A stretch of 64,000 nt of DNA from a virus. Shown one piece after another: positions 1,913-64,000 of this stretch. The stretch spans positions 1-64,000 of IMG/VR virus record IMGVR_UViG_3300035698_013740, one strand, 5' to 3'. The translations under genes were made by a program, and so were the position numbers. Numbering within the stretch: the first letter of the stretch is position 1; each line of letters starts with the position of its first letter. The notes under the pieces are model-generated. The model was not told the origin of the DNA. It saw only the letters and a list, made by a program, of their open reading frames with translations, and searched no databases.

Positions 1913-4234
1913 ATGGCAGAAAAGATTGTCAGTCCAGGAGTATTCACACGAGAAAGAGATTTAACTTTCATACAGCAAGGTGTTGCCGAAATAGGTGCAG
2001 CTATTGTTGGTGTATATCCAAAAGGACCAGCATTTGTTCCTACTACGGTAGAAACGCAAGGAGATTTACAGGCTATGTTTGGAGTACCTGATGGCAAACA
2101 TTATGGTCAATATGTAGCAGAAGACTATTTACGACAAGGTGGAAAGGTAACAGTAGTTAGAGTCGGTGGTTTGGGTGGATATACTCAAACAGATGCACTA
2201 GCTCTTAAGGTAACATTAAGTGGTTCAGTTAGTACTGTAGCCATTTTGATGTCAACCTCACAGGATAGTGGATTAACTGGATTTACTACTTCAACATTCC
2301 TTCATGATACTTCGGCAGGATCTGCAAGTTACTCTAGCACAGAAACTGGAGTATTAAATTTATCTGGATCTGGAGTAACTGGAACAGATTATTCTGTATC
2401 GTTAGATCCTAAATCTCCAGATTATATTAAGAATGTTTTTGGTCAAAGTCCGCTGGGTCTTAAGGGAGGATACAATTACCTTATGTTTGATGAAAAATTA
2501 TCAAATTATACAGGATCTGCTGCACCTGGAATAACTGCATCTATATCTGTAATTTCTACTGTAGATTTTTCTTATGATATGTCAGTTGCAACTACTCCTT
2601 GGTTTCTATCACAGAAAATTTCAAGTGCTAGATACCAACTATTTAAATTCCATACATTGGGAAGTGGCACAAATGCAAATCGCCAAGTTAAAATTGCTAT
2701 AGATTCGGTTAGAGTTGCAGGTTCGGTTCTAAATTCAGATTACGGTACGTTTAATGTTACTGTTAGAGAGTATGGTGATACTGATGCACGACCTATTGTT
2801 TTAGAATCGTTCCAAGGCGTAAGTCTTAACAAAGAAGATACATCCAATTATATTGGCGCAGTTATTGGTGACAGAAATGTTACTGTAGATTCAAATGGTG
2901 ATTTATCTGAAACGGGCGATTGGGAAAATAGATCTAAATACATAAGAGTAGAAGTTAAGGGTGAAGGAACTTATCCTGTTACTGCTATTCCTGCTGGATT
3001 TGAAGCATTGGCACTACCTGTAAATGAGTCAACACTTCCAGTTGTAACATATACAACTGCATCTCTTACAGATCCATATACGAATTATAGCGGATTTGAT
3101 TTTAACAGATCAGATAATTTAAACTATGTAAATCCAACACCAGAAACTGCTGCATATGGAAATAACGTTTCATTCTCTCTAGACGAAACACTTGGAATAA
3201 GCGGATTAGGATTAGAACTCACAGGTTCTACACAAACTTCTGCTGATTTGAAGCAACGTAGATTTATAGTTGGATTTCAGGGTGGATTTGATGGATTGAG
3301 TCCATCAATTAGTGCATCTGTTGGTAGCAATATTTCAGCTGCAAATACATTTGGACTTGATTGTTCAACTTCAGCATCTAGTGGATCAGTTGCATACGCT
3401 AGGGCATTAAACGCAATTTCAAATCAAGATGAATTTGATATTAATTTACTAGTAACACCTGGAATTATAAGAAGCTTACATTCTTCTGTAACTACCAAGG
3501 CAATTGATGTTTGCGAAGATAGAGCAGATTGTTTCTATATTGCAGATTTAGTTGGATCTGACGCCACTGATGATGATGTGTTGGCTCAAGCAGAATTAGT
3601 TAATACTAGTTATGCTGCTACATATTACCCATGGGTGAAACTTAAAGATTCTAATACAAACCAATTAGTAACTGTACCTCCGTCGGTAGTAATGCCTGGA
3701 GTATATGCAGCTAACGATAGGTTAGGTGGTGAATGGTGGGCTCCAGCAGGATTCAATAGAGGTGGACTACCTGGAGTTGTATCTGCAGTTAAAAAGCTTA
3801 AACACACTTCTAGGGATGTTCTATACGAAGGAAAAGTTAATCCTATTGTGAGATTCCCAGGTAAGGGAGTAGTAGCATGGGGACAAAAAACTCTACAAAG
3901 TAAAGCATCGGCTCTAGATAGAATTAATGTTCGTAGATTGTTAATTGCACTTAAGAAATTTGTGGCATCGACATCTAAGTTCTTAGTATTCGAACAGAAC
4001 ACTACTGCTACTAGAAGAAGATTCCTAAGCACAGTTAATCCTTACTTGAATGAAATTCAGGCTCGTCAAGGACTAACAGCGTTTAGAATTGTTATGGATG
4101 AAAGTAATAATGGACCAGAGATTATTGATCGCAATATGCTTCAAGGTCAAGTATTTATTCAACCTACACGAACTGCAGAATTCTTAGTAATAGACTTTAA
4201 CGTATTACCGACGGGGGCCCAATTTGCCATATAA
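1913..4234 (+). CDS. Tail sheath protein (T4 gp18-like)
   Basis: N-terminal 'SPGVFTRERD', C-terminal 'WWAPAGFNRG...NPIV.FPGKG..AWGQKTL...DRINVRRL...FEQN...PTRTAEF'; AGGAG RBS. Confidence 0.97.
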   Translation: MAEKIVSPGVFTRERDLTFIQQGVAEIGAAIVGVYPKGPAFVPTTVETQGDLQAMFGVPDGKHYGQYVAEDYLRQGGKVTVVRVGGLGGYTQTDALALKVTLSGSVSTVAILMSTSQDSGLTGFTTSTFLHDTSAGSASYSSTETGVLNLSGSGVTGTDYSVSLDPKSPDYIKNVFGQSPLGLKGGYNYLMFDEKLSNYTGSAAPGITASISVISTVDFSYDMSVATTPWFLSQKISSARYQLFKFHTLGSGTNANRQVKIAIDSVRVAGSVLNSDYGTFNVTVREYGDTDARPIVLESFQGVSLNKEDTSNYIGAVIGDRNVTVDSNGDLSETGDWENRSKYIRVEVKGEGTYPVTAIPAGFEALALPVNESTLPVVTYTTASLTDPYTNYSGFDFNRSDNLNYVNPTPETAAYGNNVSFSLDETLGISGLGLELTGSTQTSADLKQRRFIVGFQGGFDGLSPSISASVGSNISAANTFGLDCSTSASSGSVAYARALNAISNQDEFDINLLVTPGIIRSLHSSVTTKAIDVCEDRADCFYIADLVGSDATDDDVLAQAELVNTSYAATYYPWVKLKDSNTNQLVTVPPSVVMPGVYAANDRLGGEWWAPAGFNRGGLPGVVSAVKKLKHTSRDVLYEGKVNPIVRFPGKGVVAWGQKTLQSKASALDRINVRRLLIALKKFVASTSKFLVFEQNTTATRRRFLSTVNPYLNEIQARQGLTAFRIVMDESNNGPEIIDRNMLQGQVFIQPTRTAEFLVIDFNVLPTGAQFAI

Positions 4235-4269: not shown

Positions 4270-4318
4270 AAAATCTTATATCTATTAGTTGTTACACCAA
4301 TAAGTATAAGATTTTTTT
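4270..4318 (+). terminator. Stem-loop with T-tract after the sheath gene
   Basis: AAAATCTTATA...TATAAGATTTT inverted repeat running into TTTTTTT. Confidence 0.6.
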
Positions 4319-4426
4319 ATGCGCAAAACCAATTATAGTGATTTTGACAGAGAGAAGTTATTTAAGGAAAATGGATACGATGTTGAAATTGTTTGGGAAA
4401 ATAAAACTAAAACTAGTATATCTTAA
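4319..4426 (+). pseudogene. 35-codon remnant of a Vsr/DUF559-like homing endonuclease
   Basis: MRKTNYSDFDREKLFKENGYDVEIVWENKTKTSIS; 'GY.V..VWE' is the C-terminal motif of Vsr-like endonucleases. Confidence 0.5.
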
Positions 4427-5764: not shown

Positions 5765-5963
5765 CTATAAATCCATTCTACTAAGTCACATTTGGGAGTT
5801 GACTTATTACGGTAACGGATTCACACATTCAGATGTATGGAGTTTACCAGTTAGATATAGAATATTTTATCACGGAAAATTGATAGAAGCAAAAGAAAAA
5901 GAAAAACCCACACAATCTGCACCAACATCAACTACAAACACTAATATAAGTCCAGGAAGATAA
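5742..5963 (+). CDS. ATG-less reading frame, probable frameshift extension of the chaperone (gp51-like / G-T type)
   Basis: Frame opens after TAG 5739-5741 on the T7 run; encodes FFGLPSNYKSILLSHIWELTYYGNGFTHSDVWSLPVRYRIFYHGKLIE...; ends TAA just before a terminator. Confidence 0.7.
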   Translation, partial: TFFGLPSNYKSILLSHIWELTYYGNGFTHSDVWSLPVRYRIFYHGKLIEAKEKEKPTQSAPTSTTNTNISPGR

Positions 5964-5980
5964 TTTCTCTGGACTTTTTT
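5949..5980 (+). terminator. Rho-independent terminator
   Basis: AGTCCAG...CTGGACT stem followed by T run. Confidence 0.7.
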
Positions 5981-6018
5981 AGTTTCTAGATATTTATCCA
6001 CAAGTAACTGAGTCAAAA

Positions 6019-13174: not shown

Positions 13175-14523
13175 TAACAACTATAACTAACGAAACCTTT
13201 GGTAGTTTTTTACGTAGATGGCAAAACGATGAATGTTTTGTAGATTTTGTATTATCTGATAGCGAACTACATCCTAGAAATAATTCTATATCTTTGATTT
13301 TAATTAAATTTATAGATGACGGGGATACGTTTGTACTTCCAATAAATCATAATGAAGCAAATAACGTAAACATAGATTTGTTATTAATGCTCAGAAGTTC
13401 TAACACTGCAAAATACGTTTTAGAAAAAAAGAAAATTAACCATGCGTTTTCACTAAGGGGAAATGTAATTGATGTTTCCTTAAGTAGATATATAATGGAT
13501 GGATCCACAACAGAATATGATCTCCATTATACAAAGTCCCATACTCACATATACTCTACTCAATATAAGTATAAAAACTTAAATAGGGCAATACCTGTTT
13601 TAAAGTGGGTAGAATGGTTTGAATCCGTATACGAAGAAATTTATCCATACCTTAAAGATATAAAGGTAAATTCGTTTTACAACATAAGCTTTTTGAATAC
13701 TCTATCTATTATAGAGCGAAATGGATTATTTGTAAATCCTAATAAATTCACAGGATCAGATAAGCATATTTCAAAACAAGGATTGGTACATACCGAGTAC
13801 AATCCATTTACCTCCACAGGTCGACCTTCTAATAGATTTGGCGGAGTTAATTTTTCTGGTCTTTCTAAGAGAGATAAATCTAGAGACGCATATGTTAGTA
13901 GATTTGAAGATAACGGAGAAATGGTATTGTTTGATTTTTCTGCATATCATCCGCATTTATTAGCAAAGTTAATTCAATACAAACTGCCAGAAGGCAATGT
14001 ATATGAATGGCTAGGTAAACAATATTTTGATAAATCTGAATTAACTGACGATGAAATTGAAGAAGCAAAAATAAAGACATTTCAGTATTTCTATGGTGGA
14101 TTTGATAAGAGTACATCATCTATTCCATATTGTGCAAAAATCATAGAGTTTACTGATACACTGTGGGAATACGGAAATGTCAAGGGATACATTTCATCTC
14201 CAGTATCTAAGAGAAAAATTCATTTAGATTTGATTAATGATATAACTAAGCAAAAGCTTCTTAATTATTTACTTCAGTTATATGAAACTGAAATGAACAT
14301 CCTGGTAATGAATAGATTGAATTCGATATTATCTGGTAAATCAAGTAAATTGGTTTTATATACATATGATTCGTTCCTATTTGATATAAACAAATCAGAA
14401 AATGAAAATGGGCAATTGTTAGATCTAATTGTACAAGAATTAAATCCATCTGGACTATTTCCAGTTAGAGGATACAAGGGAAAATCGTATGGAAAATTAA
14501 AACAAATAGAACTAGAAAGATAG
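13171..14523 (+). CDS. Divergent family A DNA polymerase-like protein
   Basis: 'TSTGRPSN', motif A 'DFSAYHPHLLA', motif B 'AKIKTFQYFYG', motif C 'YTYDSFLFD'. Confidence 0.8.
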   Translation: MITTITNETFGSFLRRWQNDECFVDFVLSDSELHPRNNSISLILIKFIDDGDTFVLPINHNEANNVNIDLLLMLRSSNTAKYVLEKKKINHAFSLRGNVIDVSLSRYIMDGSTTEYDLHYTKSHTHIYSTQYKYKNLNRAIPVLKWVEWFESVYEEIYPYLKDIKVNSFYNISFLNTLSIIERNGLFVNPNKFTGSDKHISKQGLVHTEYNPFTSTGRPSNRFGGVNFSGLSKRDKSRDAYVSRFEDNGEMVLFDFSAYHPHLLAKLIQYKLPEGNVYEWLGKQYFDKSELTDDEIEEAKIKTFQYFYGGFDKSTSSIPYCAKIIEFTDTLWEYGNVKGYISSPVSKRKIHLDLINDITKQKLLNYLLQLYETEMNILVMNRLNSILSGKSSKLVLYTYDSFLFDINKSENENGQLLDLIVQELNPSGLFPVRGYKGKSYGKLKQIELER

Positions 14524-54851: not shown

Positions 54852-55070
54852 ATGAAATATTATGAAGTTCACGTAGAATGGCGTGATGAAAACGGAGATA
54901 AAGTTAAAAAGTTTACTGAAAGGTATCTTGTATTTGCTGTATCTGTTACGGATGCAGAAGTTAGAGTTACTAAAGTATTCGGAGAAGAAGAATCCACATC
55001 TGGAGTTGAATTCAATGTGAAGTTGGTAAAAGAATCTTCAATTGTTCGAGTGTTTGAAGTTGGTCAATAG
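54852..55070 (+). CDS. DUF4494-like protein
   Basis: 'YYEV.V....ENG.K.KK..ERYLV.A.SVTDAE.RV...VKESSI..V'. Confidence 0.65.
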   Translation: MKYYEVHVEWRDENGDKVKKFTERYLVFAVSVTDAEVRVTKVFGEEESTSGVEFNVKLVKESSIVRVFEVGQ

Positions 55071-55105
55071 TATGTGACAATACATACTCGATTTTCAAAA
55101 AGCTG

Positions 55106-55143
55106 CCCTTGCTAGAATTAATCTAGCAAGGGTTTTGCCTTTT
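55106..55143 (+). terminator. Rho-independent terminator
   Basis: CCCTTGCTAGA...TCTAGCAAGGG stem followed by TTTTGCCTTTT. Confidence 0.8.
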
Positions 55144-55214
55144 ATACGGTGTACCTCATATTTATTTTAAATGGTTACATTTGTTCATTTAAATTATTAA
55201 CGAGGAATGTGTAT

Positions 55215-55973
55215 ATGGACGATTCAACGATCGACAACACAAGAGAGTTCAGTGGTGAATTTGAAGAATTAAAAAGGGCAGGAATGCCTCAGTTTGTAAA
55301 ACCTCTGACATTTGCGACAGAAAATCAAGGAAAATGGTATGATGAAATATCAAACCCGACAAATAAAATAATAATGTGCCATGCTGTAGCAGGTGTGGGA
55401 AAAACGCATATAACGCTATATAGTGCACTTGAACATATTTTCAAAAAAGATAGACCTCAGAAGAAGCTTATTATTATTAATCCTACTGTCGACGTTGGGA
55501 ATGAAAATGCTCTTGGATTTCTTCCGGGATCTCTTGGACAGAAAATAGAAAATTATAATGAAAGCGCGTATTATGTTCTTGCTAAGTTAATGACTAAAAG
55601 TAAATTAGATGAATTAATAAAAAAGGAAAAGATTCAATTTAGAGTATTGAACTTTTTAAGGGGAGTAAATTTAGAGGATATGGTAGTTCTATTAGATGAA
55701 GCTCAGAATGTATCTAGTAAGCAACTTAAGACACTGATGACTAGAATTAATGATGATACTAAGCTTATTATCCAAGGAGATCTGGGACAATGTGATAAAT
55801 TTAAGGATTGGAAACAATCTGGCTTCTTTGATGTTTGGAAAAGATTAAAGGGCGTAGAAGGTGTAGGCTATATGGAATTTACACCGCATGATGTTATTAG
55901 ATCTAAAATTGTAAAGGATGTTTTATCAAGATACGCTACTGAGGAAAATATTGTATTAAACGGTTTTTCTTAA
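55215..55973 (+). CDS. phoH: PhoH-family ATPase
   Basis: 'AGVGKT','LGFLPG','FLRG','LDEAQN','TRI','GDLGQCD','DVIRS'; ATG 55215 preferred. Confidence 0.92.
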   Translation: MDDSTIDNTREFSGEFEELKRAGMPQFVKPLTFATENQGKWYDEISNPTNKIIMCHAVAGVGKTHITLYSALEHIFKKDRPQKKLIIINPTVDVGNENALGFLPGSLGQKIENYNESAYYVLAKLMTKSKLDELIKKEKIQFRVLNFLRGVNLEDMVVLLDEAQNVSSKQLKTLMTRINDDTKLIIQGDLGQCDKFKDWKQSGFFDVWKRLKGVEGVGYMEFTPHDVIRSKIVKDVLSRYATEENIVLNGFS

Positions 55974-56043
55974 GAATAATTTAACATTGTAGATAAGTAT
56001 TGTATATATTGTTAATTCAACTTATATACATACAACAAACAAA

Positions 56044-56553
56044 ATGAATATCGCTAGAAAGCATACATTGGTTTTAAACAGTACTGGAATTCCTATTATG
56101 ATTATGGATTCTAGGCGGGCGTTTAAAAACGTATATACTGACGCAGTGTACCTTGTTAGCAATTACACTGGAGAATTCTTTAGATCAACCAATGAATCAT
56201 TTGGAGTTCCTTCAGTTATTAGATCTAAGAGATTTGTAAAGCTACCATTCAAAAAGGCAACACGCACTAAAGAAAATGTCTTCAAAAGAGATAAATACGA
56301 ATGTGTGTATTGTGGTGATGGCAATAAAAAGCATCTTACAATCGATCATGTGCTTCCAAAGTCCAGAGGTGGTAAAAGTTCTTGGACCAACGAAGTGACA
56401 TGTTGCTTTAGTTGTAATAATAAAAAGGATAATAAGACTCCTGCAGAAATGGGATGGAAAGATCCAAATCCACAGCATCCCCATTACTTAATTCTTATGA
56501 ATTCATTCGTTAAAAACGTTCCTAATGATTGGGAACCATATCTATTTATGTAA
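56044..56553 (+). CDS. HNH endonuclease
   Basis: 'RDKYECVYCG','TIDHVLPKSRGG..SWTN.VTCC.SCN.KK'. Confidence 0.92.
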   Translation: MNIARKHTLVLNSTGIPIMIMDSRRAFKNVYTDAVYLVSNYTGEFFRSTNESFGVPSVIRSKRFVKLPFKKATRTKENVFKRDKYECVYCGDGNKKHLTIDHVLPKSRGGKSSWTNEVTCCFSCNNKKDNKTPAEMGWKDPNPQHPHYLILMNSFVKNVPNDWEPYLFM

Positions 56554-56557
56554 AATT

Positions 56558-56713
56558 ATGAAAAAAGTTTATATTTATGAATCTCCAGATAAAGGAAAGA
56601 CTATCTTCCGTAGGGAATTTGGTGTATATGGAAAGCGTGAAAAGAAAATTGAATGGTATGCACCTGCTGCAATTGGAAATCCAATTACAGTAGTTTGGGT
56701 TCCTGAAGTTTAA
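56558..56713 (+). CDS. Small hypothetical protein
   Basis: 'YIYESPDKGKTIFRREFG'. Confidence 0.5.
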   Translation: MKKVYIYESPDKGKTIFRREFGVYGKREKKIEWYAPAAIGNPITVVWVPEV

Positions 56714-56715
56714 AT

Positions 56716-56786
56716 GGGTCAATGGCCGAACGGTTAGGCACGGGGTTGCAAACCTCGGTATGTGAGTTCGAATCTCTCTTGGCTCT
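56716..56786 (+). tRNA. tRNA-Cys(GCA)
   Basis: GGGTCAA/TTGGCTC acceptor, loop TTGCAAA, TTCGAAT T-loop, U73. Confidence 0.85.
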
Positions 56787-56805
56787 CAAAAAATAAAGGT
56801 TACAT

Positions 56806-57108
56806 ATGTTAGATTTAGATAGGTTATTGGATTTAGAAATGCAAGGCAATGATTGTGACGCAACTACAATTAGAGATTATTTGCATAAGTTACTAAGGGA
56901 AGTTTGGGTAGAACAAGATGGATTCTCAGGTAAAAGACCATTTGGAAATAGTTCATGGGAATATGATATGTATATTCCTCTAATTAAAGATGGAATTATT
57001 GATGGTAAATTCGAAGATGATGATCCTGAATGTTATATTGAATCTGTTGATTCGAAATTAGGACATAAAATCATCCTTCAGCTCATTGACCATATATTTG
57101 GAAAGTAA
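56806..57108 (+). CDS. Hypothetical phage protein
   Basis: 'TIRDYL..LL..VW.E..GFSGKRPFGNS.WE'. Confidence 0.6.
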   Translation: MLDLDRLLDLEMQGNDCDATTIRDYLHKLLREVWVEQDGFSGKRPFGNSSWEYDMYIPLIKDGIIDGKFEDDDPECYIESVDSKLGHKIILQLIDHIFGK

Positions 57109-57553
57109 AATGATAGAAACATTTTTGTATGATAGAGAAAAGAAGCGTGATGTATCAGAAATGATATGGAATATATGTGAAACTGAATTTGCAGATTTTA
57201 TAGAAAATGGTGGATTAGGTAGGTGTGATCATAGTAGTGTTGGAACTGCAATAGTACACACTCACCGAATATGTATATGCGGTCCACAAATCAGTGACAA
57301 ATATATTCATAATGAGATTATGGCCTATTTTATTGGTCACTTTCATCATTGGAGATTATTTTTCTTTAAAGAAGCGTTTGTTATGGATAGATTATGTATT
57401 GCTGCTTCTTGCGCTGGTACTAGCAAATTTCCGAATGAGTTACATAGCCATGGTGGAGAAACGTTGTTTATGAGAGGAGCAGGAATTAATCATGATGACG
57501 AATGGGAACTTCATTCATATAATCATCAGCCGAGCATTTGGAATGGAAAGTAA
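57086..57553 (+). CDS. Hypothetical protein
   Basis: ORF; start possibly 57110. Confidence 0.5.
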   Translation: MTIYLESKMIETFLYDREKKRDVSEMIWNICETEFADFIENGGLGRCDHSSVGTAIVHTHRICICGPQISDKYIHNEIMAYFIGHFHHWRLFFFKEAFVMDRLCIAASCAGTSKFPNELHSHGGETLFMRGAGINHDDEWELHSYNHQPSIWNGK

Positions 57554-57947
57554 GCAAGTAATAGTAGTTAGAAAGGATCTAAATATGCGAAAAGGAAAGA
57601 TAGCTGCCCAAGTTGCTCACGCATCTATGGGAGTTATTTTAGATTTGGTTGCAAACGGTAGAATAGTATACTCAAAAGAAGACTGTTGGGCTACCCAATA
57701 TGAAGACATGACATCAGTCACCGAATGGCTGAATGGTTCATTTACTAAAATTGTAGTTAGTGTAGATTCAGAAGAAGAACTAATGGGTTTATTTTGTTTA
57801 GTAACAAATACATTAGTACCTTGCAAGTTAATATTAGATAGCGGTCTTACAGAATTTGGTGGAAAGCCAACATTTACCTGTATGGCAATAGGTCCATGGT
57901 ATTCAGATAGAATAAATAACTTTACGGAAAATTTGAAATTATTATAG
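57543..57947 (+). CDS. Peptidyl-tRNA hydrolase, Pth2 type
   Basis: 'KQVIVVRKDLNMRKGKIAAQVAHAS','KIVV','DSGLTEF','T..AIGP'. Confidence 0.92.
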   Translation: MESKQVIVVRKDLNMRKGKIAAQVAHASMGVILDLVANGRIVYSKEDCWATQYEDMTSVTEWLNGSFTKIVVSVDSEEELMGLFCLVTNTLVPCKLILDSGLTEFGGKPTFTCMAIGPWYSDRINNFTENLKLL

Positions 57948-57988
57948 GATGTGATATTTATCTGTACACTTAAAATAGGATAAATGTT

Positions 57989-59179
57989 ATGTCTGTAAAT
58001 ATTAAATTTGATGGTGAAGGTACTGGCACCAAAAAAGATCCATTCAAAATTCCAGTAGTACCATTGGTAAAAACCAAACTTAAACCACTATACTTAGAAA
58101 TTGAAGTACTGTCTTCACATGGTGGCAATACAACGCCAGAACTATATAACGTTGGGTTTAGAACTGAACAGTGGATTGCAGTAGGTGGTTCTGTTAAGGA
58201 ATCTATTACTGGTGGCATTAAGATGAGAGTTCCATTATATGCTAGGAATGATTTTCAAGATAAGCCTGAAAAGATTTATATGGCTGCATTTAAGTATGCA
58301 TCTAAGACACCAGCAGGACAATTTGTAAATGCATACAGGCTCTTAGATCCAAATTTTACATCTGAGGATGGTTGGAGTGGTAACGACTATTGGGCAATTT
58401 CATATACGGCTGAAGAAATGGTCGAGTATGCTAAATTGTTTGAAACACCAAAGGCAGAATTGCCAATTACTATTAAAGGAACGTTAGATCTTCCACAAGT
58501 AGATGAAGTAGTAGAACTGCAATCTAAAGAATTATCTGAAGTGGAAGATATGCTTATTGCTCTAGAAAAACGAGTATCATCTCTAGAAGGTGGTGTTAAA
58601 GCTGAACCGGTAGATATGCTTATTGCTCTAGAAAAACGAGTATCATCTCTAGAAGGTGGTGTTAAAGCTGAACCGGTAGAAGTTGTAGTAGAACCTATTG
58701 CTGATGTATATGTTGAAGAAAATGTAGATGGTATTAATTTCTCAGTTGATCATGAATGGATAGATGAAAACACATTTATTTTGAATTTGAAACTTGATAA
58801 TGTAGATGAATACGAAGGATTTGCAAACTTTCAATTTGATGTGCCATTTATCAATGGTACTAATTTTGTAGATACTATTGCAGAAGGAACTTATTTTGAT
58901 AATACTCCAGCAAATGATGGAACATTTGATGAGGCAAAGGTAATTAGTGGATGGACTTGGCGAGCGTTTAGAAATGATAACTTACAAAAGATCAGAGTGT
59001 CTGGTTTTGCATCATCTCTAAGTACAATTTATGATGATGGAACTTTAGTAAGAATGAAATATGACGTAACTGATTCAGCTGCTGAAAATTTTACATTTTT
59101 CTTTAATACTGTTAGATTAAATGGGTTAAGGACTCCAGTTAACCCAAAAAATCCAAGATACATTGTAACTAAAGATTAA
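57989..59179 (+). CDS. Acidic protein with coiled coil and C-terminal cohesin-like beta domain
   Basis: 'FILNLKLDNV...GFANFQFDV','DGTLVRMKY'; contains internal duplication. Confidence 0.55.
   Translation: MSVNIKFDGEGTGTKKDPFKIPVVPLVKTKLKPLYLEIEVLSSHGGNTTPELYNVGFRTEQWIAVGGSVKESITGGIKMRVPLYARNDFQDKPEKIYMAAFKYASKTPAGQFVNAYRLLDPNFTSEDGWSGNDYWAISYTAEEMVEYAKLFETPKAELPITIKGTLDLPQVDEVVELQSKELSEVEDMLIALEKRVSSLEGGVKAEPVDMLIALEKRVSSLEGGVKAEPVEVVVEPIADVYVEENVDGINFSVDHEWIDENTFILNLKLDNVDEYEGFANFQFDVPFINGTNFVDTIAEGTYFDNTPANDGTFDEAKVISGWTWRAFRNDNLQKIRVSGFASSLSTIYDDGTLVRMKYDVTDSAAENFTFFFNTVRLNGLRTPVNPKNPRYIVTKD
58547..58678 (+). repeat. Exact 66-bp tandem duplication
   Basis: DMLIALEKRVSSLEGGVKAEPV encoded twice with identical DNA. 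Confidence 0.95.
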
Positions 59180-59240
59180 AAAAAAAGAATTTTTAGGAAC
59201 ATTGAAACAAAAAGAAACAGTTAGAGTATATTTAAACATA

Positions 59241-59351
59241 ATGACGAAGCAAAGACAACATATAAAACGATTTTGGTATATAGATACGAACCCGAATAGG
59301 GATCCGCTATCTCACCAATCTATATGTTCAATCCTGGATACGGAATTGTAA
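59241..59351 (+). promoter_or_regulatory. Putative 36-aa leader peptide ORF of the tRNA array
   Basis: MTKQRQHIKRFWYIDTNPNRDPLSHQSICSILDTEL; overlaps a segment complementary to the downstream terminator. Confidence 0.45.
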
Positions 59352-59385
59352 CGTTCATATATGGATATAAAACCATTAGGTTTTG

Positions 59386-59423
59386 GAGAGATAGGATTTT
59401 AGAATCTTATCTCTCTTTTTTTT
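59386..59423 (+). terminator. Rho-independent terminator upstream of tRNA array
   Basis: GAGAGATAGGATT/AATCTTATCTCTC stem plus T8. Confidence 0.85.
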
Positions 59424-59530
59424 GTTTTGCTGTTTCTTTATGAAACTTTTTGAAATATATTTAGTACTAGCTCATCTAGGAAACTAGAAAAAATGAGCAA
59501 TTGTTTTTTGACTTATTGATATTACCAAAT

Positions 59531-59595
59531 GTGGGAGTAGCTTAATTTGTAAAGCATACTTAACGTAGTTGTAGATTCGAATCCTACCTCCTGCA
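59531..59595 (+). ncRNA. tRNA-like RNA with shortened anticodon arm
   Basis: GTGGGAG/CTCCTGC acceptor, D-arm, TTCGAAT loop; anticodon arm only TAC-TTAAC-GTA. Confidence 0.55.
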
Positions 59596-59664
59596 CAAAA
59601 GAGTGGTAACCTTATACACGGGGTTGTAAGTAGATTATCGAAGAGATAAGTCTCACCATTATAT

Positions 59665-59739
59665 CTGGATATAGCGCAGTTCGGTCGTCGCACTTGATTT
59701 GGGATCAAGGACACGGGGGTTCAAATCCCTCTATCCAGA
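59665..59739 (+). tRNA. tRNA-Pro(TGG)
   Basis: CTGGATA/TATCCAG, CTTGA-TTTGGGA-TCAAG, A73. Confidence 0.9.
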
Positions 59740-59742
59740 CAA

Positions 59743-59835
59743 TAGGGAAGGAGCATTGAAGTGACTAGCATGATGTTTGAGGAAGGGGTCGCAACCTAAC
59801 TGAGTCAAGGAGAGTGAAAGACCTCCCTTTCCCTA
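59743..59835 (+). ncRNA. Unassigned structured RNA within tRNA array
   Basis: TAGGGAAGGAG.../...CTCCCTTTCCCTA closing stem with internal hairpins. Confidence 0.4.
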
Positions 59836-59843
59836 AGTTTAAT

Positions 59844-59916
59844 CGAGAATTGGCGCAGCTGGTAGCGTACTCCGTCTGGAGCGGAGGGGTCGTGGGTTCG
59901 AGTCCCACATTCTCGA
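59844..59916 (+). tRNA. tRNA-Pro(TGG), atypical anticodon loop
   Basis: CGAGAAT/ATTCTCG, CTCCG-TCTGGAG-CGGAG. Confidence 0.8.
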
Positions 59917-59923
59917 CTAAGAT

Positions 59924-59995
59924 GCTTCTGTGGCAGAGAGGATATGCAACGGTTTTCTAAGCCGTACCACGTGGGTTCGAATCCTATCAGGAGTA
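59924..59995 (+). tRNA. tRNA-Arg(TCT)
   Basis: GCTTCTG/CAGGAGT, ACGGT-TTTCTAA-GCCGT. Confidence 0.85.
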
Positions 59996-60001
59996 CAACA
60001 T

Positions 60002-60075
60002 ATGCCATTAGCACGGTCTGGTAGTGCAGCTGTCTTATATGCAGTTGGTCACAGGTTCAAATCCTGTATGGTATA
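60002..60075 (+). tRNA. tRNA-Ile(TAT)
   Basis: ATGCCAT/ATGGTAT, GCTGT-CTTATAT-GCAGT. Confidence 0.8.
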
Positions 60076-60079
60076 CACT

Positions 60080-60151
60080 GGGCCTGTAGCTCAAAGGTAG
60101 AGCACCCCGCTCATAACGGGACGGTTGAGTGTTCAATCCACTCCAGGCCCA
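60080..60151 (+). tRNA. tRNA with CAT anticodon (Met or Ile2)
   Basis: GGGCCTG/CAGGCCC, loop CTCATAA. Confidence 0.88.
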
Positions 60152-60331
60152 CAAAAAATTCACAGCGATGCGATTATAGTTCCCAATGAGTTCGAAATCG
60201 TAGTGACGAGGGAAATAGTACATCGCCTTCATCGTAACAAAAGGATGCCACTTACATTATCTTAGGATAAATAAAGACGGTACTAACTTGCAGGCCATTA
60301 CCAGAGCCGAAAGATTTAAATCTGGTTTTAT

Positions 60332-60414
60332 CTAGATGTTGGACAATTGGATGGTCCACCTGACTGTAAATCAGACGCTTAATCGCCGTGTAGGTTCGAA
60401 TCCTTCCATCTGGA
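60332..60414 (+). tRNA. tRNA-Tyr(GTA)
   Basis: CTAGATG/CATCTGG, loop CTGTAAA, long variable arm, A73. Confidence 0.85.
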
Positions 60415-60442
60415 CAAGGCTTTAGGAAACTAAAGTTTACAT

Positions 60443-60531
60443 TTATCCGTAGCTCAGTCTGGTCAGAGCGCGACGCCGTTAACGTCGAGGCCCTTATAAG
60501 GTTTACATAGGTTCAAATCCTATCGGGTAAT
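60443..60531 (+). tRNA. tRNA-Asn(GTT), atypical with long variable arm
   Basis: TTATCCG/CGGGTAA, CGACG-CCGTTAA-CGTCG, 19-nt variable region. Confidence 0.75.
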
Positions 60532-60536
60532 CAAAT

Positions 60537-60655
60537 GTGCAGGTGGCGGAACGGGTAGACGCTAGGGACATACGTCCTGAGAAGTTTAGGTATAATACAC
60601 ATAGTATGGTTAATACTTGTAAATCTTCGTAGAGGTTCGAATCCTTCACTGCACA
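60537..60655 (+). ncRNA. 119-nt tRNA-like RNA (Leu-type D arm, ~50-nt extra arm)
   Basis: GTGCAG/CTGCAC acceptor, 'GTGGCGGAACGGGTAGACGC', GGTTCGAATCC; no canonical anticodon arm. Confidence 0.6.
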
Positions 60656-60661
60656 CAACAT

Positions 60662-60735
60662 GGAACTCTAGTGTAAACTGGTGAGCATGTGAGTCTGAAA
60701 AGCTCATGGTTTGGGTTCGATTCCCAGGGGTTCTA
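60662..60735 (+). tRNA. tRNA-Phe(GAA)
   Basis: GGAACTC/GGGTTCT, TGAGT-CTGAAAA-GCTCA. Confidence 0.88.
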
Positions 60736-60760
60736 CAAAACAAAAATGATGGTATAGTAA

Positions 60761-61234
60761 ATGATAGAAGGATTAACATTAGAAGAGCAGGCAACGAATC
60801 ATGAAACATGGAGACATATTCATAGAGTTCAATATTATCTGTTAAACGTAGTAGCTAATTTACAAAAGAGATTACATATTCATGATCAATCTAAATTGGC
60901 AGAACCTGAAGTACAACTTTTTACTGAATATACTGATAAGCTAAGGGATGTTACATACGGATCTGAAGAATACAAATCGTTTTTAAGTGGATTGAAACCT
61001 GCATTAGATCATCACTATGCAAATAACAGACACCATCCAGAACATTGGAAAAATGGTGTAGAAGATATGACTCTTCTAGATTTGATTGAAATGATTTGTG
61101 ATTGGAAAGCTGCAAGTGAGAGACACAATGATGGTAACATTCGTAAAAGTATTGAACTTAATACTGAACGATTCAATATGAGTCCTCAACTCAGAAGAAT
61201 TTTTGAAAACACAGTAGACGAAATACTGATATAA
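60761..61234 (+). CDS. DUF5662-like HD-related protein
   Basis: 'HDQSK','HHY..NRHHPEH','DM.L.DLIEMICDWKAA'. Confidence 0.75.
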   Translation: MIEGLTLEEQATNHETWRHIHRVQYYLLNVVANLQKRLHIHDQSKLAEPEVQLFTEYTDKLRDVTYGSEEYKSFLSGLKPALDHHYANNRHHPEHWKNGVEDMTLLDLIEMICDWKAASERHNDGNIRKSIELNTERFNMSPQLRRIFENTVDEILI

Positions 61235-61374
61235 AGATAAAACAACATGGATTGGATAGAAACCTTTTGGAACAGATTGAGTATTATAGAAAATATTGGG
61301 AAAACTCTGGGATAGACCCAGATACAATGAAGAAATTTGAATAGAAGCATATTCAATAGGAAAAGAATAATTTT

Positions 61375-61448
61375 GGTCCTACAGTCCAGAGGCCGTGGAC
61401 GCCACCCTGTCACGGTGGAGATCGAGGGTTCGAATCCCTCTAGGATCG
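61375..61448 (+). tRNA. tRNA-Asp(GTC)
   Basis: GGTCCTA/TAGGATC, CCACC-CTGTCAC-GGTGG, G73. Confidence 0.9.
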
Positions 61449-61450
61449 CA

Positions 61451-61517
61451 TTTCGTATAGTATAAGAACGATGTGGCGTATACACCCATGATGGTTCAAA
61501 CCCATCTACGAAATCCA
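61451..61517 (+). ncRNA. Minimal tRNA-like RNA with encoded CCA and degenerate D and anticodon arms
   Basis: TTTCGTA/TACGAAA-T-CCA, GATGG-TTCAAAC-CCATC. Confidence 0.55.
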
Positions 61518-61523
61518 TTTTAT

Positions 61524-61612
61524 GGTGATTGAGGCAGATTATTGGTTAGCTGCGCTAGGCTGTGACCCTAGTAGGAGAAATCCTTTTGCGAGTTCGATTC
61601 TCGTCATTCACC
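61524..61612 (+). tRNA. tRNA-His(GTG) with long variable arm
   Basis: G-1, CTAGG-CTGTGAC-CCTAG, AGGA-GAAA-TCCT variable hairpin, C73. Confidence 0.8.
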
Positions 61613-61617
61613 CATTT

Positions 61618-61690
61618 GGTGCAGAAGAACAAATGGCAGTTCACCTGATTGTCTATCAGGAAGTTGCGGGTTCGAACCCCGTGTGCACCG
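61618..61690 (+). tRNA. tRNA-Asp(GTC), second copy
   Basis: GGTGCA/TGCACC, CCTGA-TTGTCTA-TCAGG, G73. Confidence 0.82.
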
Positions 61691-61692
61691 CT

Positions 61693-61768
61693 GTGGCCGT
61701 AGCTTAATTGGTAAAGCGCTAGATTGTGGCTCTAGTACATACGGGTTCAAGTCCCGTCGGTCACCCCA
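61693..61768 (+). tRNA. tRNA-His(GTG), second copy
   Basis: GTGGCCG/CGGTCAC-C-CCA, CTAGA-TTGTGGC-TCTAG. Confidence 0.9.
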
Positions 61769-61788
61769 TTTTCTAAATAAAAAATAGC

Positions 61789-61935
61789 ATGGAAATTGAT
61801 ATGATATATTTTGAAGTTTTATGTTGGGTATTGTTATACTTGATATTAGGAATAGTAGGGATCGTATGGTATACTGGAACACAAGAATACCAAGATATGG
61901 ATGACGAAGAAAGAGCAAAATTTTGGTTTGGATAA
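61789..61935 (+). CDS. 48-aa single-TM protein (not in ORF track)
   Basis: MEIDMIYFEVLCWVLLYLILGIVGIVWYTG... Confidence 0.45.
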   Translation: MEIDMIYFEVLCWVLLYLILGIVGIVWYTGTQEYQDMDDEERAKFWFG

Positions 61936-61945
61936 AATAATTTAT

Positions 61946-62019
61946 GGATGCAAAGCTCAATAGGAAGTAGCACCGGACTTTTAATCCGGGGGTTGTGGGT
62001 TCGATTCCCACTGCATTCA
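61946..62019 (+). tRNA. tRNA-Lys(TTT)
   Basis: GGATGCA/TGCATTC, CCGGA-CTTTTAA-TCCGG. Confidence 0.88.
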
Positions 62020-62040
62020 CACACACAATCGTAATAGACT

Positions 62041-62415
62041 ATGTATAAATTATTTTTAGATGACGAGCGAATACCAAGAACTATTTATCCTGAAGATCCT
62101 GTTGGATGGGTAGTTATTAGATCGTATTCAGAGTTTGTGAAAATTATAGAAGGAACAGGTTTACCTAAGATTCTTTCGTTTGATCATGATCTTGCAGAAG
62201 AACATTACGATCCAGCAATTTGGAGAGATGGAAATCCAGTTCCATACGATACATACAAAGAAAAAACTGGTTATGATTGTGCAAAATGGCTAATAAGCAA
62301 AGAACATGATCTTAGAAACATAGATATTAGAGTACATAGCTATAACCCAGTAGGTGCTAAAAACATTAGAATGTTGTTAGAAAACTGGAATAAACACTTA
62401 AACAAAAACGTGTAA
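62041..62415 (+). CDS. Cyclic-phosphate-processing receiver-like domain protein (RNA-repair associated)
   Basis: 'LFLDDER','RSY.EF','SFDHDL','TGYDCAKWL','VHSYNPVG'. Confidence 0.8.
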   Translation: MYKLFLDDERIPRTIYPEDPVGWVVIRSYSEFVKIIEGTGLPKILSFDHDLAEEHYDPAIWRDGNPVPYDTYKEKTGYDCAKWLISKEHDLRNIDIRVHSYNPVGAKNIRMLLENWNKHLNKNV

Positions 62416-63537
62416 ATGCAAAATTATTTTGAGACTGATCTTCATTTGTCTCTAACTTCAAAGGGATTTAAGAAATTTTGGCAAGGATTTGCTGTAACAG
62501 ATGGATATGACAATTTCTATTCAAGGTCAGAATCTTGGCAAGAAAAAGCAGATGGCTCAGAATCTAAACATATTGTATCTGCACCAAAACTTGCAAAAGC
62601 AAAAAATGTTGGTAGAGCAAATGAAGTAGCTCCTAGAGAACAAGCAATATTAGAAATCAAATCTACTCTTTTAAATAAAACACATAGTGGATATGTAAAA
62701 GAAGGAGAACCCTTAGTTCCATTAAGACCTCAAGCAATGACTGCTCTAAGTTTTGCAAAACGAAGTCATAATATTTCATATCCTGCATTAATTCAACCAA
62801 AGCTAGATGGAACTAGAATGTTGTTTAATGGAGAAGTCGGTTGGACTAGAAAGAATATTGACTATATTCCTGATGTGCTTGTTCATCTAAATTGTGAGCT
62901 CCCCAACGGAATCGTATTAGATGGAGAATTGATGCTGGATCAAAACGAATTCACATTTCAGGAAACTATCTCAGCTATTAAGAAATTCAAGAAAGGAACT
63001 AGTGATCAACTTAGATATTATGTATATGATTTGGTAGATACTACATATCCTGATATGGATTTCACTGATCGATATGGAGTGCTTAAGGATATTGTGGAAG
63101 CACTTAATAACCCATATATTATCTTAGTACCTACATTCGAACTAGAGGCCAAAGAGCATATTCAGGAGTTCCATGACACATTTGTTGCAGATAGTTATGA
63201 AGGTGCCATGGTTCGTAATAGATTAGGAGAATATAAGTTAGGAAATAGATCTTCAAATCTTCAAAAGTTTAAAGTATTTTTTGATGAAGAATTTATCATC
63301 ATTGGTGCAAAGGATGGAGTTGGCAAATATGCTGGATGTGTTACATGGATTTGTGAGACAAAAGATAAAGTAGAATTTGATGCAACTCCAAAGGGAACAA
63401 TTGCTATGAAGCAGCAGTGGTTTGATGATCGAGATTCAATTATTGGTAAAGAGTTAACAGTTCGTCACTTTGGATATACCGATGGTGGAAGCCTTAGATT
63501 TCCAGTTGGCATTATAATAAGAGATTACGAAGGGTAA
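62416..63537 (+). CDS. ATP-dependent DNA ligase
   Basis: 'QPKLDGTR','LDGEL','YYVYD','YEGAMVR','RS.NLQKFK','LRFP'. Confidence 0.93.
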   Translation: MQNYFETDLHLSLTSKGFKKFWQGFAVTDGYDNFYSRSESWQEKADGSESKHIVSAPKLAKAKNVGRANEVAPREQAILEIKSTLLNKTHSGYVKEGEPLVPLRPQAMTALSFAKRSHNISYPALIQPKLDGTRMLFNGEVGWTRKNIDYIPDVLVHLNCELPNGIVLDGELMLDQNEFTFQETISAIKKFKKGTSDQLRYYVYDLVDTTYPDMDFTDRYGVLKDIVEALNNPYIILVPTFELEAKEHIQEFHDTFVADSYEGAMVRNRLGEYKLGNRSSNLQKFKVFFDEEFIIIGAKDGVGKYAGCVTWICETKDKVEFDATPKGTIAMKQQWFDDRDSIIGKELTVRHFGYTDGGSLRFPVGIIIRDYEG

Positions 63538-63541
63538 AAAT

Positions 63542-63904
63542 ATGCTAGGAACACAAAAATTTGAAGTAAAATGGGAACATCTTGCACTTCTAGAACGTGC
63601 ATATGTTGGATGGAATGGATGTGAGTTTGGAGCACCAAGTATGGATTGCAAAAGACCATACGGCAATAGCGACGTATTTACTGATATAGGAGAAATACTT
63701 AATATTGAAGGTACGTATGACGAAGAAGAAGAGTATACAACTTTTTCTGACGAACAACAAACTCATATGAGAAAGATTCACGAGGAAATGAAAACAGTAC
63801 TTCAAATTCTATTTGTACATGCTACTACTGGTATTAGACAGGGTCTCTATGAATCAGAAAGATATGGAACAAATTGGAAGCTAAAATATAAGATAGATCA
63901 CTAA
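63542..63904 (+). CDS. Hypothetical phage protein
   Basis: 'CEFGAP..DCKRPYGNSDV..DI.EIL'. Confidence 0.6.
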   Translation: MLGTQKFEVKWEHLALLERAYVGWNGCEFGAPSMDCKRPYGNSDVFTDIGEILNIEGTYDEEEEYTTFSDEQQTHMRKIHEEMKTVLQILFVHATTGIRQGLYESERYGTNWKLKYKIDH

Positions 63905-63914
63905 ACAGATACAC

Positions 63915-63985
63915 TCCTCTGTAGTATAGCGGTAGAACGTATGGCTGTTGACCATAAGATGACGGTTCAACTCCGTCCAGGGAGC
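63915..63985 (+). tRNA. tRNA-Asn(GTT), second copy
   Basis: TATGG-CTGTTGA-CCATA, GACGG-TTCAACT-CCGTC; imperfect acceptor stem. Confidence 0.75.
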
Positions 63986-64000
63986 TACATAAACAGCTTG

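Follow-up and report, generated by a model that had tools for sequence, protein, structure and literature searches.

An uncultured salt-lake phage, represented by the IMG/VR virus record IMGVR_UViG_3300035698_013740, carries a short open reading frame (ORF) followed by a strong intrinsic terminator at positions 59241 to 59423 of the stretch analyzed here, i.e., the first 64,000 nucleotides of the record (the window), just ahead of a region rich in tRNA genes. Part of the ORF can pair with the 5′ arm of the terminator hairpin, such that this pairing and the terminator are mutually exclusive, and the complementarity is rare among phage terminators. The ORF also contains a run of codons decoded by phage-encoded tRNAs that is the longest in the record. 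Taken together, these features would fit a ribosome-mediated transcription attenuator that modulates read-through into the tRNA region, a reading to which we give a probability of roughly 0.4 on the strength of statistics obtained from one sequence. An attenuator at this place had been proposed from inspection of the DNA without database searches (the sequence-only reading). The layout, the rare alternative pairing, and the codon run fit that proposal, the latter two adding support beyond what it originally rested on; the stem that would compete with the antiterminator (the 1:2 stem) is statistically unsupported, and the match between the leader codons and the proximal tRNAs is not significant (P = 0.12).

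To our knowledge, the regulation of phage tRNA genes is largely unknown, and full-text literature searches, judged from titles and abstract openings, returned no account of a phage tRNA cluster under attenuation control. If the proposal is true, it would describe a translation-read attenuator placed before a tRNA block, a feedback sensor of tRNA supply made from a classical bacterial device, in the form of a simple cis element open to mutational tests. Phage tRNA genes have come under study as a counter to bacterial defenses that cut or deplete tRNAs (for example, PMC11555353 and PMC11464382).

The terminator and its alternative pairing

The leader ORF described in the sequence-only reading is present on the plus strand at 59241 to 59351. 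It consists of 36 codons and a stop (MTKQRQHIKRFWYIDTNPNRDPLSHQSICSILDTEL), starts with ATG, and forms the inner part of a longer ORF at 59202 to 59351. Downstream lies the intrinsic terminator (plus strand, 59385 to 59423), in which a hairpin of 14 pairs with a 4-nt loop (59385 to 59416) is followed by a T run, confirming the strong terminator that had been recognized ahead of the tRNAs. With a folding energy of −17.6 to −18.3 kcal/mol, this hairpin ranks first in strength among the seven terminator-like sites found by a scan of the window; it is positioned 107 nt before a tRNA-like gene and 241 nt before tRNA-Pro. A second, weaker hairpin on the same strand (59470 to 59509) comprises a stem-loop at 59470 to 59498 and a T run at 59504 to 59509. 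In addition, a second small ORF of 39 codons (59324 to 59443) overlaps the end of the leader ORF and crosses the terminator hairpin and its T run; its codon-usage score of 0.34 per codon is nearer to that of real genes than the score of the leader ORF (−0.04).

As had been claimed, the leader segment CTATCTCACCAA (59307 to 59318) is complementary to TTGGAGAGATAG (59383 to 59394) at 11 of 12 positions. The complementarity extends beyond this core, with 59301 to 59317 pairing with 59384 to 59398 in a duplex of −15.4 kcal/mol. Hereafter, segment 2 (59301 to 59318, plus strand) denotes the strand that the leader contributes to the proposed antiterminator, with CTATCTCACCAA included, and segment 3 (59383 to 59398, plus strand) denotes the 5′ arm of the terminator, common to antiterminator and terminator. 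A duplex of this energy was reached in none of 1,000 dinucleotide shuffles of the upstream 202 nt and in 5 of 624 other 202-nt stretches of the phage. The z-score of the leader/terminator-arm pairing is −4.28, and when the same complementarity test was applied to 290 terminator-like sites from about 110 other phage loci fetched for the analysis, only two of them reached z ≤ −4.28. The antiterminator complementarity is thus in the top ∼1% (0.7%) of real phage terminators. The outlier of this null set, L055, is antisense to a gene, has no tRNA downstream, and was rejected as a candidate.

The antiterminator domain (59300 to 59400) folds with a z-score of −2.49, a stability matched by 1 of 200 shuffles, and the whole region folds with a z-score of −4.08 (0 of 200 shuffles), the structure signal coming mostly from the terminator hairpin itself. 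Such values, together with an alternative pairing that is real and with the position of the region immediately between a promoter-like motif (at 59228, see below) and a strong terminator, might also be expected of a functional RNA that works independently of translation. This could be a small RNA that extends over about 180 nt, from the 59228 motif as far as the terminator, or else a leaky or protein- or RNA-controlled terminator modulated by its upstream complement. In T4, too, small stable RNAs are encoded within the tRNA cluster. A functional RNA of either kind nevertheless seems to us quite improbable, as it would leave both the open frame and the run of cognate codons unexplained, the structure signal being mostly that of the terminator hairpin and no Rfam family other than tRNA being recognized. 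In the Rfam search of positions 55000 to 64000 at E ≤ 1, only tRNA matched; in a narrower scan (59150 to 59860, E ≤ 10), the best non-tRNA matches were at chance level, with E-values of 0.12 (20.7 bits versus a 99.3-bit cutoff) and 0.82 (25.3 bits versus a 60-bit cutoff).

Leader codons and the predicted switch

The codon counts given in the sequence-only reading are correct, with three ATA, two CCG, and one each of AGA, AGG, and CGA in the leader. Codons of this set, which was picked after looking, occur 8 times against 2.5 expected (nominal P = 0.003). Their specific match to tRNA-Pro(TGG), tRNA-Arg(TCT), and tRNA-Ile(TAT) is post hoc, and the set includes CGA, which is not read by tRNA-Arg(UCU). 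CCA, the usual Pro codon of the phage, is absent from the leader.

A different pattern is seen with the full set of cognate codons, as derived from the record's 26 tRNAs and standard wobble rules. In the frame of the ORF, 25 consecutive codons (59235 to 59309), corresponding to leader codons 1 to 23 plus the two before the ATG, are cognate. No run of this length exists elsewhere in the three plus-strand frames of the 72,381-nt record; those ranking second and third (22 and 21 codons) both lie out of frame inside genes. Shuffles of the region reached the run at P = 0.0003 to 0.001. The first 22 codons of the leader are all cognate, which none of 1,705 stop-free leader shuffles equaled, and a cognate run of at least 23 codons was found in none of 1,245 in-frame gene segments and in 1 of 116 ATG ORFs of 30 to 45 codons from all six frames, that one presumably being the leader itself. 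The run stops at codon 23, which is where the antiterminator segment starts, and 5 of the last 13 codons are noncognate.

Synonymous codon choice in the leader favors rare codons for which the phage encodes tRNAs, a choice that is unusual in this genome. Thr is encoded by ACG at all three of its positions (tRNA-Thr CGU) and Pro at both of its positions by CCG, a codon used 2.6 times per 1,000 in phage genes; CGA, AGG, ATA (three times), and CTA also occur. The leader samples 15 of the 19 decoding classes, a diversity of tRNA classes that is not significant given that all codons are cognate (P = 0.06 to 0.09). No Shine-Dalgarno sequence precedes the ORF. This is no objection to its translation because most genes of the phage lack one too; the stretches upstream of most genes of the window are A/T-rich and devoid of Shine-Dalgarno sequences, which suggests a host that may initiate translation without them.

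For an attenuator to respond to a stalled ribosome, the leader would have to offer a partner that competes for segment 2. The sequence-only reading had placed such a stem between TATATAGAT (59277 to 59285) and ATCTATATG (59318 to 59326), and the two can pair, through eight Watson-Crick pairs and one U-G pair, with no statistical support for the stem. The minimum-energy fold uses pairs other than these, in an imperfect leader hairpin (plus strand, 59257 to 59328; segments 1:2) that sequesters the antiterminator segment and is no stabler than in shuffles. The RNA preceding the 3′ arm of the terminator was then folded at equilibrium with a 30-nt ribosome footprint masked at each codon. In this model, the probability of the antiterminator is 0.76 to 0.86 with the ribosome at codons 2 to 18 and 0.0 with the ribosome at codons 20 to 29. 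A ribosome on the stop codon gives 0.2 for the antiterminator and 0.65 for the 1:2 hairpin, and in the full-length RNA the probability of the terminator is 0.94. The modeled dependence on stall position fits classical attenuator logic.

The ORF, the terminator, the rare and mutually exclusive pairing, and the codon run are properties of the sequence itself, whereas translation of the ORF, ribosome stalling on it, regulated read-through, and any link to host tRNA depletion are inferred. In the proposed mechanism, transcripts would enter the leader either from the transcription unit of the upstream 396-amino-acid (aa) gene or from the motif at 59228. With no stalled ribosome, the leader would fold on itself (59257 to 59328), and the hairpin at 59385 to 59416 with its U tract would stop RNA polymerase. 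A ribosome stalled at about codons 2 to 18 would leave the segment at 59301 to 59318 free to pair with the emerging 5′ arm (59383 to 59398); this antiterminator pairing would block the terminator, and the polymerase would continue into the tRNA genes. The switch would report a shortage of phage-encoded tRNAs and feed back on their synthesis, and because codons 1 to 23, many of them rare, are all read by the phage's own tRNAs, it would sense exactly those tRNAs. Taken further, the leader would be a multivalent sensor of tRNA supply, a "sampler" ORF of phage-tRNA codons, many of them rare, on which stalling raises the transcription of more than 25 tRNA genes in response to host tRNA depletion or cleavage. 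We consider this extended version unlikely, and the sensing of host tRNA cleavage in particular is conjecture.

Leader-peptide attenuators control amino-acid biosynthetic operons; trpL, hisL, and pheL are examples, as are the multivalent thrL and ilv leaders. The element in the window resembles them in having a short ORF and an intrinsic terminator just before the genes that would be regulated, in having one leader segment that may pair with a stretch upstream of it or, alternatively, with the terminator's 5′ arm, in putative product-linked codons located upstream of the antiterminator segment, and, by the equilibrium model, in a stop-codon ribosome that disfavors the antiterminator. It differs from the leader-peptide (ribosome-mediated) attenuation of amino-acid biosynthetic operons (see PMC1183508 and PMC2965389) in that the regulated genes would be phage tRNAs and not biosynthetic enzymes, and in that the leader samples 15 of 19 decoding classes instead of one or two repeated codons. 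Moreover, it has no Shine-Dalgarno sequence, its stop codon lies 30 nt past segment 2 and not adjacent to it, its 1:2 stem is statistically unsupported, and a promoter-like motif is found downstream of the terminator.

In T-box riboswitches (Rfam RF00230), a switch between terminator and antiterminator responds to uncharged tRNA. Here too, tRNA status would be the signal and the choice between terminator and antiterminator the output, with the difference that the proposed read-out is via translation. The T-box covariance model found no match at E ≤ 1 in 55000 to 64000 or at E ≤ 10 in 59150 to 59860.

A promoter-like motif and the evidence against attenuation

In a data-driven count of 7-mers in the window, ATATTTA and TATTTAT rank within the top three for intergenic enrichment, and ATATTTA is the oriented motif for which this enrichment is strongest. 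Eight of the 26 plus-strand copies of ATATTTA are intergenic (intergenic DNA makes up 5.5% of the window), compared with none of the nine copies of its reverse complement. Plus-strand copies of ATATTTA(T) lie at 4426, 5990, 15999, 41140, 48060, 55158, 57954, 59228, and 59457, and the intergenic copies are mostly 29 to 64 nt before a gene start, with no conserved −35 element. We regard ATATTTA(T) as a candidate promoter of this T4-like phage, a function predicted from the motif. A variant, ATACTTA, is found before the sheath gene (1865) and at 1421.

Three plus-strand copies are close to the leader. The first (57954 to 57960) precedes the 396-aa gene, whose start is 35 nt away; the second (TATATTTAA, 59228 to 59234) ends 6 nt before the ATG of the leader; and the third (TATATTTAG, 59457 to 59463) sits between the terminator and the tRNA region, where it may serve the array as an independent promoter. 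A single −10-like element, TATAAATA, makes up the late promoters of T4. The window motif differs from it in sequence, ATATTTA(T), and TATAAATA itself occurs once on the plus strand and never in intergenic DNA. The arrangement is otherwise similar to T4-like terminator-promoter junctions, with a single AT-rich, octamer-like motif, no conserved −35, and several copies after terminator-like hairpins.

These observations support a rival explanation, namely, that the segment is an ordinary junction between transcription units. The terminator would end the unit of the 396-aa gene or a short unit starting at 59228, the tRNA promoter would lie at about 59457, the ORF would be untranslated, and the complementarity and the codon run would be coincidences in a sequence that was picked by eye. 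The intergenic enrichment of ATATTTA and its copies before the 396-aa gene and after the terminator are what such a junction predicts, and the order terminator-like hairpin, motif, next gene recurs at three other places (∼4300/4426, 5975/5990, and 55130/55158), the hairpins near 4300 and 55130 having been recognized by eye only. Another terminator of the phage is also located about 190 nt past the stop codon of its gene (5765 to 5983). On the other hand, a junction would require two independent features to coincide where they are jointly meaningful, i.e., an antiterminator z-score in the top 0.7% of 290 sites and the record's longest cognate run. Furthermore, the motif is a promoter by conjecture, and the copies at 59228 and 59457 depart from the seven best ones at both bases that flank the core (T in front, A or G behind), so that their status as promoters is the weaker. 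A sigma-70 scan detected no promoter-like plus-strand site between 59118 and 60773, the scan as a whole performing at background (33 sites versus 31.0 expected). We take the junction to be a serious possibility, if not a probable one. Were there only a terminator and a promoter here, the finding would be ordinary, and its main yield would be a candidate promoter motif for an uncultured phage.

A number of results weigh against the attenuator, and the claim is kept open by the likely independent promoter, the unsupported 1:2 stem, the lack of relatives, and the negative class-wide screens. As to the promoter, the sequence-only reading had named an independent one at 59425 to 59530 as evidence that would contradict it; ATATTTA at 59457 places one there at the level of the motif, and there is no sigma-70-like site in that interval. 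In our reading, the array is probably driven from a separate promoter at 59457 as well, in which case gating by the leader would act on top of it. The recurrence of the order terminator, motif, next gene elsewhere in the phage points the same way. If, in turn, the copy at 59228 is used, transcription would start at about the ATG, and the ORF would therefore be leaderless or truncated in transcripts from there.

The leader also falls short in its folding. Without the terminator (59241 to 59384), it is as unstructured as shuffled sequence (z = −0.71; 50 of 200 shuffles as stable), and the 1:2 stem is for this reason statistically unsupported, as a plain junction would predict. In the equilibrium model, the ribosome-free RNA already favors the antiterminator (0.82) once the 5′ arm is out, and the switch would therefore have to rest on folding kinetics. 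The single natural variant seen in the leader, 59313 C>A, removes a G-C pair of the antiterminator and changes a His codon to Asn; this is weak evidence against constraint. It was seen in one contig at a depth of 4.8 in a survey of the contigs of four DNA runs over 58600 to 60300, in which the population is nearly clonal.

The codon evidence has its own weaknesses. The run statistic was picked post hoc, after other statistics had failed. With the tRNAs of the proximal array alone, 19 of the 36 codons are cognate (P = 0.12) and the longest run is 6, which is not significant; the full cognate set needs tRNAs located up to 13 kb downstream. That set is partly arbitrary because the record is only ∼34% complete and ends inside the tRNA region, so that tRNAs for Ala, Gly, Val, Glu, and other amino acids may lie past its end. 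The leader contains no tandem run of a single regulatory codon. Its codon-usage score (−0.04 per codon) is below that of all 449 in-frame gene segments and near that of spurious ORFs, which fits noncoding DNA as well as it fits a leader of rare codons, and a frame poor in G-initial codons likewise resembles noncoding DNA. An open frame of this length arises in 1,705 of 20,000 shuffles (8.5%), and there is no recorded gene of this sequence; both the frequency of such frames and the noncoding-like codon usage are in line with an untranslated ORF at a transcription unit junction.

Relatives of the element were sought and not found, which likewise agrees with a junction. Searches of GenBank phages by blastn and megablast gave no match, and a search of proteins 26 to 86 residues long with the 49-aa form of the ORF found no homologue. 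For the 396-aa protein, 15 pattern matches in IMG/VR and 146 in JGI metagenome contigs yielded no relative, and the terminator sequence had no exact match in IMG/VR. Comparison of the leader, the peptide, and the 396-aa protein with the fetched loci by blastn/tblastn gave nothing significant, the best E-values being 0.029 (over 18 nt) and, for the peptide, 0.6. The neighboring genes do have relatives, 215 for PTH2 at ≤58% identity and 31 for DUF5662 at ≤67%; the nine closest DUF5662 loci contain only one tRNA. Among the 112 PTH2 or DUF5662 loci taken from IMG/VR for the analysis, 58 contain tRNA genes.

Screens of the tRNA arrays of other phages show no general attenuator pattern, again as a junction would predict. 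With a strict terminator rule, an upstream terminator was found in only 5 of 41 distinct sub-arrays. With a looser rule (terminator within 250 nt), 36 of 163 arrays had one, and among these 36, the antiterminator z-score was ≤ −3 in two and the codon run significant in one. Cognate-codon runs at P ≤ 0.05 upstream of tRNA heads were no more frequent in sense (6 of 163) than in antisense (13 of 163).

Analogous elements and genome context

The cleanest analogue of the layout in the window is found in an IMG/VR family unrelated to the window phage (L079 and L113 to L117), where a 35-codon ORF (MQKQGLNIVVANWVANDDNKGRRGVMRPVEDIIDW) is followed by a terminator. The element lies at 3798 to 3960 in L113 and is also present in L079, L114 to L117, and G001 (at 13701); no Rfam family matched it. 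As in the window, a small ORF containing a complement to the 5′ arm of the terminator precedes the terminator and then the tRNA region, the complementarity having z-scores of −4.6 to −4.7. The region (22 tRNAs by ARAGORN, 24 Rfam matches) is headed by tRNA-Gly, which starts about 25 nt past the terminator and hence leaves no room for a promoter. In five contigs the leader is nearly invariant while the upstream protein is only 50 to 80% identical, with changes falling only in a single synonymous site, in the spacer, and in the loop of the terminator. This conservation is not leader specific, since the tRNA region is equally conserved, and the five copies, being nearly identical, provide no covariation. 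At the codon level the match is weak, with 26 of 35 codons (P = 0.03); at the residue level, 21 consecutive residues with phage-encoded tRNAs lead up to the complementary segment, a run that is rare, being found in 0.14% of gene segments. The family differs from the window in a leader of dissimilar sequence, in the weakness of the codon match, and in an antiterminator that a ribosome at the stop codon fails to block. The same layout in nonhomologous sequences suggests, by analogy, that the design may have arisen more than once.

One other candidate, L076 (9560 to 9860), was rejected. There, the peptide NNKFIKNFDHNNDYKN (16 cognate codons) and then a terminator precede tRNAs for Lys, Tyr, Phe, Ile, Asp, Asn, and His. 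It was dismissed as evidence because the antisense run is 14 codons versus 16 in sense, making AT-rich composition the likelier cause. The only start in the frame is GTG, and an exact-match search returned its own record plus two unrelated contigs having the terminator alone in common, with no relatives.

The source record of 72,381 nt has an estimated completeness of 34%, and the window is its first 64 kb. Within the window, the long ORFs are all on the plus strand and G+C is ∼34%. PHROGs matches include tail sheath, tail tube, baseplate parts, a gp43-type DNA polymerase, and a clamp loader, in addition to a UvsX-like recombinase, ribonucleotide reductase, PhoH, and DNA ligase. On account of the sheath, tube, gp43-type polymerase, clamp loader, and UvsX matches, the phage is a T4-like myovirus. 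Near-identical DNA is present in sequencing runs labeled salt lake metagenome; apart from two runs that are possibly the source, three others contain 0.59 to 0.91 of the sampled words, and no RNA datasets turned up among the runs with near-identical DNA.

The final protein gene before the tRNA region is the 396-aa gene (plus strand, 57989 to 59179), which has no assigned family and has a coiled-coil repeat. In its product, a stretch of about 23 residues is repeated in tandem (MLIALEKRVSSLEGGVKAEPV, twice; window positions 58500 to 58640), and its Pfam match is a weak coiled coil only. Just upstream is a PTH2 peptidyl-tRNA hydrolase gene (57492 to 57947; Pfam E = 5.8e-30), adjoining the tRNA region.

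The tRNA region occupies 59665 to 63985 of the window, on the plus strand, with the order Pro, Pro, Arg, Ile, Met, Tyr, Asn, Phe, Asp, His, Asp, His, Lys, Asn. ARAGORN identifies 15 tRNAs in the window and 26 in the record, up to whose last bases the tRNA region reaches; one of them, tRNA-Cys at 56716, lies upstream of the region. Protein genes (DUF5662, DNA ligase, and others) are interspersed among the tRNAs. The sequence-only reading had the array begin with Pro, Arg, and Ile; these do follow, the first element being not tRNA-Pro but a tRNA-like gene without an anticodon arm (plus strand, 59531 to 59595). This gene has acceptor, D, and T arms and scores 38.2 bits with the Rfam tRNA model, and 9 nt replace its 17-nt anticodon arm; ARAGORN misses it. 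It could be a pseudogene, a processing signal, or a decoy.

The spacer of about 100 nt between the two tRNA-Pro genes (59741 to 59843) seems, on inspection by eye, capable of forming a long G+C-rich stem (GGGAAGGAG ... CTCCCTTTCCC), and Rfam gave no match to the spacer at E ≤ 1. Some tRNA calls (Asn, His, and Gln) are unusually long, at 83 to 90 nt (60443 to 60532, 61525 to 61613, and 64106 to 64188 of the record), and may contain insertions or result from misjoining.

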